This document shows positions 3,354-61,560 of a DNA stretch of 64,000 bases, piece by piece; position 1 is the stretch's first letter, and each line of letters opens with the position of its first letter. Source of the DNA: Octopus vulgaris (taxonomy: Eukaryota). The position numbers and the translations under genes are program-made. The notes under the pieces are model-generated. The model was not told the origin of the DNA and did no database searches. It was given only the letters and a program-made list of their open reading frames with translations. The stretch lies in the NCBI GenBank assembly GCA_951406725.2, contig OX597829.1, positions 52,762,001-52,826,000 of the forward strand. Reading direction: 5' to 3'.

Positions 3354-4212
3354 TATTTTTATTTTTTTTCTTTCTTATATATGTGATGGATACTGAATGA
3401 CAAGAAAAGGCAAAGATAAAGATAGATTTCAGAAACCATATTTCACTACCTTGTCAGGGATAAGGAGAATTTATCAAATTATCTTTATCAATTTTTGCGA
3501 GAAATGAAGCAGAATAACAAAAAATGTTTTATATTTTGCAGGGTGACTGTGTTTATTGCTCTTGTATATTTTCTTATATTAGTATTCAGTTTTGATTTTT
3601 TTTTCATCACAACCATTCCATGATTTTGGAATATCTTCCTTCATTTGCAACGTACCGTCTAGCTCAGTTAACATTGTCAAATATCACATCAAACAAACTG
3701 TTATTCTGAGATTTCAAAACTCCTCGTGTCTCGGAATCAATCTTCTCAATTATCATTCTTTGATATTTATATATACTAAATTCTGATTCATTCTCACTTC
3801 ATCATACTACCATCAAACCATTCCTTAAGCGATTCTAGCATCCCATCAGTATCATTCTATCATATACTTTATTTATTTATTTATTTATTTATTCATTCAT
3901 TCATAAAATCATTTTCCTGCCAGATAAAATGGCTGAATTCATTATTTCCAGAAGCAAGCATTAAATTTTCCTACTTCAAAATAAATTAAGAAAGAAAATA
4001 CAAAAAAGAAAAAAAGAGCAAAAGCAACAAGGATTCTTTGAATAAATGAAATGCAAATTTTCGATAATTCCAACTGTCAGTGGAATCTGAATTTTCAATC
4101 ACAATATAATGATTGGTAACGACTTTACTTAAAGTTCTATTCAAATAGAATGTTACTTATTGAGACTTCTGCTAAATTAGTCATTAATACTTTCATGGTT
4201 ATATAATTCAAT

Positions 4213-49373: not shown

Positions 49374-52295
<2,922 letters not shown>

Positions 52296-52300
<5 letters not shown>

Positions 52301-53538
52301 TTTCTTTTATTTGCCACCAGGACGGAGGGGGACAATACAAAGACAGACATAAAATGTGGGAATGGTAAAAATAGCAAGATATAGGATCGGTGGACGTTCC
52401 ACTTTAGCTATATCGAGAAGATTAGTAGCGAGGAAGTGCGGCGGCGTCCTCATGGAGATCCTGGGCGCCAACGAAAACTAGTCTGTTCCGGAGGACTTTC
52501 CGGTTGGGGACTACTATGGTTAATTTCCAGATGTCTTTGACCTGGCAGCACTATCGATTCGAGATAAAACTCTACGGATACGGATATCCTGTCAGACGAG
52601 CTTGTCCGAGGTTGCGCGCAGAGCGATGAAACCGTTCTGCATGCAACTCGTTCAGTGTCTGAGTTTTGCTAACTTGTGGAGTTATGTCGTCGATCAGCTG
52701 CTATTGCGTGTAGGAGAGATCCATCTGTCGATCGAGTCCGTAGAGTCGATTGCCCCTCTGGCCTCCTTTAGTCGGGCAGGCAAGGCAGTTTTCCTTTGCC
52801 TGGTGGCTGTGGCGAAAGAGGTTGTCTGATGGACAAGTCTGAAAGGAACGGGGACTGAGACAGTCCTCTTTAGAATATCCTTCACCGACTTTTGCAAGTT
52901 TCACTTGAAATGGAAAGTGAAGGTGGAGAGGGAGAAGCTGCCCTCGGGTGAATTTATAAAAAAAGGTGGGTGAAAGTTGTGAAAATGGCAAGAGTGGGTG
53001 GTACCGCTCTATGTGTAGACCGGTGAATCGGAGGAAAGGAGTTGGAGAGGGACTTGTCCTTGGTATTCAAGGAAATCTTGGATGGTGGGGTTCTTCGATT
53101 AACCCTAGAGGTCCTCCTGGATCAGAAGGACCACCCCTCAATATCATATTTCCCCCCTTACTGTCATATAATATGTATACCTATTTCTTTACTACCCACA
53201 AGGGGCTAAACACTGACGGGACAAACAAGGACAGACAACCGGATTAAGTCTATTACATCGACCCCAGTGCGTAACTGGTACTTAATTTATCGACCCAGAA
53301 AGGATGAAAGGCAAAGTCGACCTCGGCGGAATTTGAACTCAGAACGTAACGGCAGACGAAATACGGCTAAGCATTTCGCCCGGCGTGCTAACGATTCTGT
53401 CAGCTACCGTGTATACTTTTCTCTTTTTTTCTTTTAATCATTTCATTATTATATGTAAACCCCTATATTTTATGTCTGTCTTTCTATTGTCCCCTCATCC
53501 TTCGCTCTGCTGACAAATAAAAGAAATCATTATTATTA
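52296..53538 (+). mobile_element. Tx1/L1-like LINE 3' region (+) preceded by an inverted 3' terminus (52296-52370, -)
   Basis: Homologous to 49374-50727 in opposite orientation; both ends read ..caaataaaagaaat into (ATT)n. Confidence 0.75.
53181..53409 (-). mobile_element. Young Nin/Deu SINE inserted in the LINE 3' UTR
   Basis: CpG-rich and intact; flanked by a tgtatac direct repeat (53174-53180 / 53410-53416). Confidence 0.9.
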
Positions 53539-57008: not shown

Positions 57009-57445
57009 CGCAGGAGAGGCTGTGTAGTAATAAGCTTGCTTCCCAACCACATGGTTCTGGGTTCAGTTCCACTGAGTGGCACCTTGGGTGTCTTCTACTA
57101 TAGCCTTGGGCCAACCTCAACCTTGTGAGTGGATTTGGTCGACGGAATCTGAAAGAAGCCTGTTGTGTGTGTGTGGGTGTGTGTGTGTGTGTATGTTTGT
57201 GTGTGTGTGTGTGCGCGCGCGCGCGCGTGTTTGTTTGTGTGTCTGTGTTTGTCCCCCATCATCACTAGACAACCAATGTTGGTGTGTTTACATCACCGTA
57301 AGCTAGAGGTTCGGCAAAAGACTCTGATAGAATAAGTACTGGGCTTACAAAAAGAATAAGTCCCGGGGTCGAGTTGCTCGACTAAAGGCGGTGTTCCAGC
57401 ATGGCCGCAGTCAAATGACTGAAACAAATAAAAGAATAAAAGAAA
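57007..57445 (+). mobile_element. Full-length CORE-type SINE
   Basis: Head ggcgcaggagaggctgtgtagtaa..gggttcagttcc; A-rich tail. Confidence 0.9.
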
Positions 57446-57455
57446 AAATATATAT

Positions 57456-57726
57456 ACTCTTTTACTCTTTTACTCTTTTACTTGTTTCAGTCCTTTGACT
57501 GCGGCCATGCTGGAGCACCGCCTTTTGTCGAGCAACTCGACCCCGGGACTTATTCTTTTTGTAAGCTCAGTACTTATTCTATCGGTCTCTTTTTTGCCGA
57601 ACCGCTAAGTGACGGGGACGTAAACACACCAGCATCGGTTGTCAAACAATGCTAGGGGAACAAACACAGACACACAAACACACACACATACATATATACA
57701 TATACATATATACGACGGGCTTCTTT
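57456..57726 (-). mobile_element. CORE-type SINE 3' half, tail-to-tail with the previous copy
   Basis: Reverse complement of 57150-57445. Confidence 0.9.
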
Positions 57727-57896
57727 ATATAAATTTTTTTCGTAATGAGATAAAAAAAACCAAGGCCGGAGACGTCTCCGATGAAGGGATATAATAAATA
57801 TCCTGGAAACAGCTGTAAGCCCTTCTATCTATAAATGTTCTAAAATCTACACAGCCTTGGTTTTTTTTATCTCTTTACGAAAAAACTTTTTATATA
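57726..57896 (+). mobile_element. Fold-back mini-element with a hammerhead motif in its loop
   Basis: ~40 bp inverted ends; gtct-CCGATGA-a-gggatat-aataa-atatcct-g-GAAA-cagctg-TA-agcc at 57774-57821. Confidence 0.7.
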
Positions 57897-58014
57897 CACA
57901 CACTGACATATGACCAACGCTGAACCCTTTATTCGCTTAATCACCGCACCTGGAACTTAGCTACAGTCTATCTATAGCACTTATTCAGCAATGACACCTT
58001 TACCTCTCATAACC

Positions 58015-58052
<38 letters not shown>

Positions 58053-58060
58053 CACACACA

Positions 58061-58105
<45 letters not shown>

Positions 58106-58530
58106 TCACACACACACACAGACACAAACACACACACAAACACACACACAAACACACACACACATATATGTTTATATATATCATGTTGAACCGTTAACCC
58201 CCTCACATCTTTCTCTTTCCGTTTCTTTTGTTTTTCCTTTCACCACCACCACCACCACCGCCACCGCAACCGCCGTCGCCACCACCACCGCCGCCGTCTC
58301 CACCACAGCTGCCACCATCCTGTTTCTCCAAATTCTAACCGGAAATTCTAGATCCTTAAACTCTAAATTATGAACTTATATATTTATAGATTTAATGATG
58401 AAAGCTAGGACACTTTTGATCAAAGTCGGGCGTTTACTCCAGTAAACAGATACACACGTGCACACACACACATACACACACACACAGATATACGTGTATA
58501 TATATATGTACATATACATGTATATATATA

Positions 58531-58600
<70 letters not shown>

Positions 58601-58694
58601 ATCCAAACGTGAAAACACAAAGAGAAAACACAACAACGCGAGGACGTGTAAAAAATATAGTATTATTGGATGCTCAGGAAGGAAGGGAAGGAGG

Positions 58695-58729
58695 GTTTAA
58701 CGTTTCGAGCGGAGCTCTTCGTCAGAAAC
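58695..58729 (-). ncRNA. Minimal type-I hammerhead ribozyme motif
   Basis: gttt-CTGACGA-a-gagc-tcc-gctc-GAAA-cg-TT-aaac: full core, paired helices I and II, palindromic helix III. Confidence 0.8.
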
Positions 58730-58840
58730 ATAGGAAAAGGAAAGATCCAGAGAAGGGAAGACAGAGGGAAAAAAATCGCCATATATATGGGGGAAAAAGT
58801 CAAGGTAAAAAATGCTAAAATAATTTTATAAAAAACATTT

Positions 58841-58876
58841 CAGTACCGGTTTCAGTCATTGAGACTTTTTCAACTG
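58841..58876 (-). ncRNA. Minimal hammerhead, U3-A8 variant (left arm)
   Basis: Exact reverse complement of 59963-59998. Confidence 0.75.
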
Positions 58877-59669
58877 TAAGTATGGAAAACAATTAAATTT
58901 TGGAAAAATTAAAAGAAAAGTTGTTTTTAAAGAATATTTACATAGTGTTCAAATACAAGGGGCTTTTTCCTTGTTTCTGCCTGTTTCTGTCTCTCTTGTT
59001 TACTCTTGTGGGTTCGAGGTCGTTGTGAATTCTTGGTAGGGAAGAAAAGAGAGAAAAGAAGGAATGCAGGTAGTATGATAGTAGTAAGGTGTTAAATGGT
59101 CAGGTGACCTAAAAGTGACTCGTTATGGATTATAGCAGTGATTGGGACTGTTTTTAAATGAATTCTTGGGAATCTCTTGAGAGTATAATTTTTAATATTT
59201 GTGTGTGTGTTTGTGTTATTCTAAGACCGTGGTGGATACAGATCCCAGATCAAAATTCCTCAAAACAGATAAATAGCATTCAGCCAACACATAGACATTT
59301 GCGCCAATAACAAAGATTCAAGCTTCAGAATTTTCCCCCTCTACCAATTCATGGACGATACAACCTGTAGCCAACAAATTAGTAAGGAGACTCTCTTTAT
59401 TACAAAATACAGACCCCATTTGAACGCGTCTACAACAAACGACATATCCACCACGGCCTTAGAATAACACAAATACACACACAAATATTTAAAATGATAC
59501 ACTCAAGAGATTCCCAAGAATTCATTAAAAGACAGACCCAATCACTGTGATAATCCATAACGAGTCACTTTTAGGTCACTTGACCATTTAACATCTTACT
59601 ACCTACATTCCTTCTTTTCTCCCTTCTCTTTTTTTCTTCTCCCTTCTTCTTTTTCTTCTTCTTCTTCTT

Positions 59670-59737
<68 letters not shown>

Positions 59738-59962
59738 CCTCCTCCTCCTCCTCCTCCTCCTCCTCCTCCTCCTCCTTCTTCTTCTTCTTCTTCTTCTTCT
59801 TCTTCTTCTCCTTCTTCTTCCCTACCTCGAACCTACAAGAGTAAACAAGAGACAGAAACAGGCAGGAACAAGGAAAATGCCACTTGTATTTGAACACTAT
59901 GCAATATTCTTTTAAAAAACTTTTCTCTTAATTTTCCCAAATTTAATTGTTTTCCATACTTA

Positions 59963-59998
59963 CAGTTGAAAAAGTCTCAATGACTGAAACCGGTACTG
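59963..59998 (+). ncRNA. Minimal hammerhead, U3-A8 variant (right arm)
   Basis: cag-TTGAAAA-agtc-tcaat-gact-GAAA-ccgg-TA-ctg. Confidence 0.75.
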
Positions 59999-60349
59999 AA
60001 ATGTTTTTTAAAAAATTATTTTAGCATTTTGACCTTTTTCCATATATATCAACTCGTGTGTTCGTTTTCAACCTTCTACACACACACACACATATGTATA
60101 TATGCTTTTATCCTTCGAAACGTAGAGTAGATGAAAGCTTTAGCGACTGAAGAAGGGGTTTTTCCTTGTGTTAATTGTCCTGTATTCTATTTTTTTGCTG
60201 TTTTTAAATAAATGTCCAGTTCCTTTGGTTTGTGTCTATGTTTTCGTTTCTCATTGTGTTCGACGTCCTTTTTGGTGTCCTGTACTTATATATGCGCGTA
60301 TATGTACATGTAGAGATAGGTACGTACATATATGTTTATCTATCTATCT

Positions 60350-60539: not shown

Positions 60540-61560
60540 AAATGTAGCTCTAGTAATGCAAACATTATCGGTCACAAATACAAAGTGTGTTTTGTTTATC
60601 CGCCAATTTTGGTGCGGGATAGCGCACCGGGAAAACTCCCTACACGACGCCGATTGTTAAGGAACCTTTGAATGTCACAGACAAGTCAAAACAATTCACC
60701 TCGGAATCACCCAGAATGCTAGATACTGATATTTCGCCTGATCCGAATAGACGGTATTGATAATCCATAATAATGGTGAAATATCGATAACTACTATTCT
60801 CGTTGGTTCCGAATTGTCTCGCCTCGTCTGTGACAGTCAGTTGTTCTTTGACACTCGTTGTTGTGTAGATAGCTTTCCCAGGAAAGCTCTCTCTCGCAGC
60901 AAATTTGGTGAATAAGCAAAACACATTCACTACGTATGTACGACCGATAATGCCTACAAAATGCAATTATTGTAGATAATTTTCAAAACCGATCTATTGT
61001 TATTCGTATTCTGTCTTCAAATTTCTCCAGTAAAAGTGAAATATAATTTATGATCCCTGTATGCTGGGTTAGCGATTCTTGAGATGGAACTATTCTTTAA
61101 GTGTACATTCTAGGGGTGATTATTGTTTAGGTAATACCAAAATTCAACTAAATTATCACAGAACCATGATTCTCCAAACATTGACTGTGATATCATTTCT
61201 ACAACGGTCGCGCATTTCAGTTCAGATCACAATTATCAAATACCGAAGTCCAACATTTACATCGAAAGGTTTCGCCACCATTTATCCTAACGCAAATATC
61301 TTAGCATTCGTATAGACTTTAAGGCAAACGCAAGTTGTTCATAACTCTCAAACTCCTGCAAAACCCTCTGCAACACGTGGTCATACGTTTATTCGCGGTC
61401 TAAAGCAAGCGTACAGCTCTTCACTCTATTTCAAAGATTTCTCGAAAACCTGCCGTAGAGTGAACGTCTGGTCGGTCGTGATGCATCCAGGACAGAAGCC
61501 ACACTGTTCCTTAGCTAACTTGGGCAAGACAATTCCTCTCCATCTTTTTCCAGACACCAG
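60540..61560 (-). mobile_element. Very degenerate LTR-retrotransposon (Ty3/gypsy-like) pol remnant
   Basis: Integrase-like HFVG..TYVVNV..FTKF..TT.SVKEQLTVTD..RQF; upstream RNase H-like fragments; many stops. Confidence 0.4.

Follow-up and report, generated by a model that had tools for sequence, protein, structure and literature searches.

Penelope-like elements (PLEs) carry minimal type-I hammerhead ribozymes in their pseudo-LTRs, and the peculiarities of these motifs (U3-A8 cores, an extra base after A9, a palindromic helix III and pairs on opposite strands) were described by Cervera and de la Pena in 2014 (PMC4209133; here and below, published work is cited from those parts of each source that were available). 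The targeting of microsatellites by PLEs is likewise on record (PMC8557442). One clade, the Naiads, was reported to be without a canonical hammerhead, some of its elements being flagged as 'HHR_core' or 'HHR_half_core' (Craig et al. 2021, PMC8557442), and cephalopod Naiads were called long inactive remnants in the same paper. Among permuted hammerheads, the strand order SGC was validated by Eckert et al. (2023), who reported from genomes of known organisms one weak GCS candidate and otherwise none, and who assume that the CUGANGA block is not interruptible (PMC10085705).

The window analysed here is a stretch of 64,000 nucleotides of Octopus vulgaris DNA, in which a preliminary description had placed five hammerhead motifs from four unrelated families within 2.6 kb (57726-60290). 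All five were found: motif 1 at 57778-57817 (+), with the core CCGATGA and the palindrome ACAGCTGT; motif 2 at 58699-58725 (-), with the core CTGACGA; motifs 3 and 4 at 58844-58873 (-) and 59966-59995 (+), both with TTGAAAA, i.e. U3-A8; and motif 5, with GAAA at 60117 and a separate CTGAAGA at 60147. A relaxed type-I scan of 57726-60290 gave 4 matches, compared with a mean of 0.03 and a maximum of 2 in 1000 dinucleotide shuffles, although this null is lenient, since the scan also gave 6 further loose, chance-like matches in the rest of the window. Nothing in the window reached the gathering score of an Rfam family. Motifs 3 and 4 sit in opposite arms of a single inverted repeat (58809-59238 and 59445-60030, 87-93% identical), and the cluster therefore consists of four independent insertions. 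The four carriers are mutually unrelated (similarity never better than E=0.03), and all of them touch TA or CA tracts, as had been claimed. Pattern searches of the genome (2.8 Gb, 227 contigs) revealed that each family is highly repeated: exact patterns, whose counts are lower bounds, gave 1,017 matches for family A (motif 1), 13,342 for B (motif 2), 803 for C (motifs 3 and 4) and 3,727 for D (motif 5).

The hammerheads of families A, B and C are ordinary, textbook minimal type-I motifs, with type-I strand order and a palindromic helix III. The window copy of family A (57773-58004, +), delimited by the scan and by family copies, is a 5'-truncated 3' end with its core at 57778-57784, GAAA at 57806, a predicted cut after 57817 and a tail of ~110 bp 3' of the TA tract. 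Its helix I is mutated, with 2 pairs left; full GTCT/AGAC is present in 15 of the 27 parsed family copies. An inverted 41-bp copy of the family A 3' end lies at 57726-57766 (-; 93% inverted match to 57854-57894). We rejected the reading of 57726-57894 as a MITE: its left repeat is this inverted copy, and other A copies continue 5' with family sequence instead. Across family A the 3' end is fixed and the 5' ends vary; the family also has inverted pairs and a tail. Family B is represented by a ~185-bp piece (58597-58780, -; scan and family copies) with a canonical minimal type-I hammerhead at 58695-58729; its genomic copies are mostly about 215 bp long and some extend further 5'. No ORF was reached from A (0/30 loci) or from B. 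Both families are probably 5'-truncated ends of longer elements. Other type-I families, with C4 cores and a true helix III, were observed at L020:8-69, L069:319-382, L112 and L156:8525-8573, besides about ten more minimal type-I families; the hammerhead diversity of this genome is large.

Motifs 3 and 4 belong to one inverted, 5'-truncated Neptune-type Penelope element, not to a non-autonomous mini-element. As judged from the inverted repeat and related copies, the window contains its left inverted arm (58790-59238, -; U3-A8 hammerhead at 58841-58876), a piece of the C-terminal GIY-YIG endonuclease (59237-59440, +; 82% to residues 715-782 in an open frame of 814 aa) and its right arm, the 3' UTR or pseudo-LTR (59445-60079, +), which is split by microsatellites at 59611-59820, carries the second U3-A8 hammerhead at 59963-59998 and ends in a 35-bp tail (60045-60079). 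The 52-aa fragment in the window had no Pfam match. Relatives elsewhere in the genome have open frames of up to 814 aa that combine RT, a cysteine linker and, at the C-terminal end, a GIY-YIG domain (RVT_1 above the cut-off; GIY-YIG 22.3 vs 22.6 bits), flanked by direct or inverted pseudo-LTRs with the same U3-A8 hammerhead inside (L151, L154, L156). One base pair of helix II changes from A-U to G-C between subfamilies. The clade name is taken from the linker as described in PMC8557442 and not from a tree. The earlier proposal that non-autonomous, ribozyme-bearing retroelements accumulate at TA microsatellites is consequently correct as to their Penelope-type nature, TA targeting and high copy number, but not for family C, which represents the terminus of an autonomous element with RT and GIY-YIG. 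Upstream of the RT frame, full-length Neptune copies (whose unit measures about 4.3-4.4 kb) contain another open frame, of 373-437 aa, at L154:4074-5384 (-) and L156:4141-5259 (-); it has no Pfam match and could represent a separate ORF1 or an N-terminus that is frameshifted or spliced.

Motif 5 had been regarded as broken, which holds for the window copy only. This copy (60104-60342, +), delimited by comparison with complete copies of family D, is 5'-truncated and retains the 3' half of a split-core hammerhead: GAAA at 60117, a helix I strand at 60142-60146, CTGAAGA at 60147-60153 and a helix IV strand at 60154-60158. It starts 2 nt past the predicted cut, i.e. past the GTC carried by complete copies. 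Complete copies hold the entire hammerhead core in a rearranged order, and on this sequence evidence the family carries a putative new hammerhead variant that the earlier reading overlooked. The copies of the family, at least 3,727 in number, derive from a non-coding unit of ~830-880 bp, vary at their 5' ends, share one fixed 3' end that lies 278 nt beyond the cut, and are mutually 97-99% identical. They are mostly dispersed and 5'-truncated; some form tandems, partial or full, with as many as four units. ORFs found upstream of D in L113 and L202 were rejected as its own, since TA tracts intervene and these ORFs belong to other PLEs. Comparison of a complete D locus (L160) with Rfam gave no ribozyme at E<=10, only microsatellite-driven miRNA noise. 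Words of D were found in sequencing runs labelled with five organism codes; four contig sets from sequencing runs contained D subfamily variants and no ends or joints, and none of the 17 matches of a metagenome pattern search contained the core.

The strands of complete D copies follow the order II-III-cut-I-II'-GAAA-III'-I'-CUGANGA. The 5' part comprises a helix IV strand, hairpin V, the helix II strand GAAGG, a strand of an interaction stem and a helix III strand; then come GUC or GUA, a helix I strand, 2-6 nt, the helix II partner CCUUC and GAAA; and the 3' part consists of the helix III, interaction-stem and helix I partners, CUGAAGA and the helix IV partner AGGGG. All core elements (CUGANGA, GAAA and the NUH triplet, with helices I, II and III) are thus present, and every core position is in hammerhead register, including G10.1-C11.1 and A15.1-U16.1. 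The order is S-G-C, not one of the circular orders CGS, GSC or SCG of types I to III, and the type-II reading of motif 5 was rejected because its helix I fails. The short I-II linker and the interaction stem, formed by the strand after helix II with the strand before helix I, are equivalent to those of type SGC. Hairpin V ends at G10.1 and is stacked on helix IV, whose other strand begins after A9; this predicted stack is continuous in family D, in the related family E and in most copies of F and G, whereas in H, L and one F copy it is weak or hard to make out. A pyrimidine tract with CAG before G10.1 was also considered as a splice site; this reading was rejected, since the tract forms the 3' strand of hairpin V, with which it covaries. 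The D unit also contains two sequences that strongly resemble 5' splice sites (L160:3199-3210 and 3617-3627).

Because the helix II partner lies upstream and because of the layout of helices IV and V, we read the fold as an SGC/CSG-class hammerhead opened between A9 and G10.1; as far as sequence can tell, D is such a non-circular hammerhead. Helices IV and V are predicted to splint the break: they would stack as a nicked helix and, substituting for the missing bond, hold A9 next to G10.1. Complete D copies are likewise predicted to self-cleave their RNA. The minimum-energy structure (-37.7 kcal/mol) pairs other strands, compared with -18 to -23 kcal/mol for the nested parts of the proposed fold, as computed by a program blind to pseudoknots; nested-only folding of complete D motifs is unremarkable (z -0.6 and -2.0).

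The same ribozyme might be active solely as a domain-swapped dimer, in which the interaction stem and helix III form a monomer rod and the arms complete helices I and II in the neighbouring tandem unit. The linkers from the interaction stem to helix III (3-11 nt on both strands) leave a short reach within one molecule, a geometric puzzle similar to that raised by Eckert et al. for SGC (PMC10085705); moreover, minimal PLE hammerheads act as dimers (PMC4209133), and D occurs in tandem arrays. However, helices IV and V close each unit on itself, the majority of D copies are shorter than two units, and short single SGC constructs cleave co-transcriptionally (PMC10085705). We therefore consider an obligate dimer a serious but rather doubtful alternative to the splinted monomer.

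The distribution of genomic 5' ends is consistent with cleavage of D RNA. Of the D copies reaching the site, 15/56 have their 5' ends at cut+0 to +19, as compared with 38/887 per 20-nt bin elsewhere (~4%; P about 1e-8), and in the 20 nt before the cut the count was 2/41. TA is not in excess in the cut+0 to +19 bin, and TA content thus fails to explain the peak. The copies of this sample were identified by a 22-mer lying 205 nt past the cut and followed the order of the chromosome (80 of the first 85 passes listed, with 3 segmental duplicates removed); in a separate best-score sample, 8 of 28 ends fell in that region, one of them exactly at the cut. According to the mechanism we propose, D RNA would cut itself after the NUH triplet, and a Penelope-type RT/endonuclease supplied in trans would prime it at a fixed AT-rich site; priming at a fixed internal site has been demonstrated in vitro for another PLE (PMC11167929). 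About one quarter of D cDNAs would then run off at the cut end, as may have happened with the window copy, and the remaining ones would read through uncut or re-joined RNA, which would yield copies one unit long and arrays with as many as four.

The fold might instead be real and no longer catalytic, serving as a signal for RT binding or folding, with the 5'-end peak reflecting a transcription start or an RT stop. Many D copies do read through the site, and minimal PLE hammerheads cleave poorly in vitro (PMC4209133). Nevertheless, the core bases and the NUH rule are all kept across families whose helices have diverged, the ends pile up immediately 3' of the cut (15), with few of them immediately 5' (2/41), and an RT stalled by structure would presumably halt at the 3' side of the fold. 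Loss of catalysis therefore appears unlikely to us.

Covariation of the helices, whose absence the preliminary description had named as a refutation, was found both within D and across related split-core families. The core-order pattern of D gave 850 genome matches, compared with 1 for the reversed control, and helix I varies among subfamilies as T-A, T.G and C-G. A flank-only pattern gave 640 matches with GTC or GTA as the cut triplet; helix III showed A->G in 10 of 100 listed rows (by eye), and among the matches listed the partner changed T->C in 9 of these 10 rows and one keeps a G.U pair. In 15 aligned D copies, picked to span the subfamilies, the six helices were paired in 95.9% of cells (40-53% in slid controls), with double changes at 5 pairs (18 cells), a number of pairs reached by 17 of 500 shuffles. 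The compensations within D are a handful of events. D shows no variation in helix II, whose covariation is therefore drawn from other families. A generic pattern, excluding D, gave 7,700 matches vs 3,210 for the control and includes several further families. Fourteen representatives of related families, located by a descriptor that favours pairing and counted with the positions fixed by the search left out, were paired in helix I at 69/70, in helix II at 56/56 and in helix III at 37/42 cells; most helix positions showed 2-4 Watson-Crick types, and partner swaps reached the observed pairing in 0/10,000 trials. In family F, a C-G pair of helix II is replaced by T-A (T with A in 23/24 rows, C with G in 17/24; by eye). 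A split-core descriptor found 75 distinct motifs in 994 kb of loci and 0 when these were read backwards. It is worth adding that the generic pattern lies about 4,500 matches above its control, and that at least six further split-core repeat families (E, F, G, H, J, K, L) were seen at L273-L302 and L343-L362.

The position of the helix II partner also bears on whether D is a plain type-SGC hammerhead, with helix II formed by the AGGGG after CUGAAGA. Such a reading is in keeping with a six-order descriptor, 25 of whose 26 SGC matches were D, and with a helix I-II linker of about 3 nt, like that of published SGC (PMC10085705). However, the AGGGG helix has 3-4 Watson-Crick pairs (-2.8 vs -4.6 kcal/mol for the upstream strand), and AGGGG has a perfect partner in helix IV. 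Among 55 distinct motifs (from 30 loci in genome order, 20 hand-picked rows of repeated families and 8 D copies, with duplicates removed), 29 had helices I and III; in 21 of these the helix II partner was found upstream, 22-30 nt from the cut, in the remaining 8 (truncated or decayed) it was absent there, and directly after CUGANGA, where a published SGC helix II strand would lie, a good partner occurred in 0/29 (1 in the control window). The upstream strand covaries, and in families other than D the strand before GAAA does not pair with the sequence after CUGANGA. An uninterrupted SGC core is thus very improbable, and the opened core remains our preferred reading.

The layout of the window cluster is nested. 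Family B lies within the TA tract at which the left Neptune arm ends, and D begins in the tract 3' of the Neptune tail; each new insertion end would offer a TA tract to the next insertion. Among 265 other 3-kb loci, which were centred on search matches and were not random draws, none of the other three families was present in 243, one in 21, two in 1 and all three in 0, so that the window cluster is a real outlier. This four-family pile-up is rare, and nested insertion into TA tracts is likely behind it. Although no comparison locus unites the four families, as this one does within 2.6 kb, it is extremely unlikely that the cluster itself is a functional ribozyme hotspot: its motifs lie on both strands, helix I of A is damaged, D is without its cut site, B and D occupy the TA tracts at the two Neptune insertion ends, and a second D copy adjoining a family C tail is known (L206). 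The hotspot as such is ordinary. We consider it likely that the cluster consists of four nested Penelope-type insertions in TA tracts, in which motif 5 derives by reverse transcription from the 3' half of a split-core hammerhead predicted to self-cleave, a fold that ends several elements of the Naiad clade. Other features of the window include a 1.6-kb (AAT)n array (50728-52301) in the microsatellite-rich stretch of 48-60 kb that also hosts the cluster, and two long palindromes, namely a common SINE-like repeat paired tail to tail (57227-57685, 86%) and an older 390-bp inverted repeat (60563-60952, 68%).

The link to Naiads comes from the published consensi (PMC8557442 supplement). By eye, the split-core fold was recognised in at least 8 of the 54 Naiad consensi, helices IV and V being present in most: the one that opens the file (by its order a ctenophore; helix I of 2 pairs), three from Acropora, two from Octopus, one near part 12 and one near part 19. 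At least five more, nematode by file order, showed a contiguous type-CSG hammerhead, again by eye. The passages listed covered 60/62 for CTGATGA, 30/30 for CCGAAAC and 30/43 for CTGAAGA; in the bivalve and spider passages the split-core fold was not clearly recognised by eye. Family H matches the published Octopus Naiad consensi at their 3' end (L285, L354-L356), with about 1 mismatch in 69 at L355 (by eye). We hold it fairly probable that the fold represents a seventh hammerhead topology, a triple pseudoknot whose strand is broken at A9/G10.1 and splinted by two stacked helices; that together with the contiguous CSG form it is an overlooked Naiad ribozyme, ranging from ctenophores, corals, nematodes and arthropods to octopus, so that non-circular permutations would be common in animal genomes; and that the 5' ends of D record cleavage in vivo. 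In algal Chlamys consensi (near parts 30 and 32 of the supplement), CUGAUGA and GAAA were seen as separate blocks, accompanied by complementary C/G runs, a hint that these elements might also have permuted hammerheads.

By analogy with this fold alone, the protein that mobilises D might be that of a Naiad. Like Naiad copies, those of D target TA, have a fixed 3' end, are 5'-truncated and include inversions as well as partial tandems. The D unit, however, is non-coding, with no N-terminal GIY-YIG/CxC/RT frame and no sequence link to a Naiad except the fold, and the Naiad-type RT motif was absent from every locus examined. The youth of D (97-99% identity), set against cephalopod Naiads described as remnants, also counts against Naiad mobilisation, and intact Neptune frames are present in the same genome as the young D.

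In the open literature, where searches for the fold led to Eckert et al. (2023) and to work citing that study, we found no account of the split-core fold or of permuted hammerheads in Naiads, and the available parts of the sources consulted, including PMC13725137, PMC6155905, PMC3088659, PMC10162972 and bioRxiv 10.64898/2026.07.22.740005, contain no description of an A9/G10.1 chain break. Non-circularly permuted hammerheads have so far come from metatranscriptomes and metagenomes with unknown hosts; here, an animal genome contains thousands of them, and they also occur in a named transposon clade. A core that tolerates the A9/G10.1 break, if true, would overturn an assumption of current search descriptors, and the break would be a natural site for the design of ligand- or strand-controlled ribozymes. 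Naiads have served as an argument that PLEs can thrive without hammerheads; if the fold is active, this argument weakens and cleavage would look general for PLEs. The 5'-end peak makes the in vivo role of PLE hammerheads, a long-open question, testable from genome data alone.

In comparison with known systems, families A, B and C do not differ from the minimal type-I hammerheads of PLE pseudo-LTRs (PMC4209133), with which they share the palindromic helix III, the extra base, U3-A8 and opposite-strand pairs. In TA targeting, 5' truncation, partial tandems and inversions this genome agrees with what was described for the Naiad clade (PMC8557442). Family D, in contrast to the minimal type-I motifs, has another topology and a real 5-bp helix III, and resembles types SGC and CSG (PMC10085705) in its cyclic block order, short I-II linker, extra I-II interaction stem and full core. 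Non-LTR retrozymes (bioRxiv 10.64898/2026.07.22.740005) are, like D, non-coding tandem units with one ribozyme per unit; they are defined in that source by type-I hammerheads, whereas D is mostly dispersed and 5'-truncated and is likely PLE-derived.
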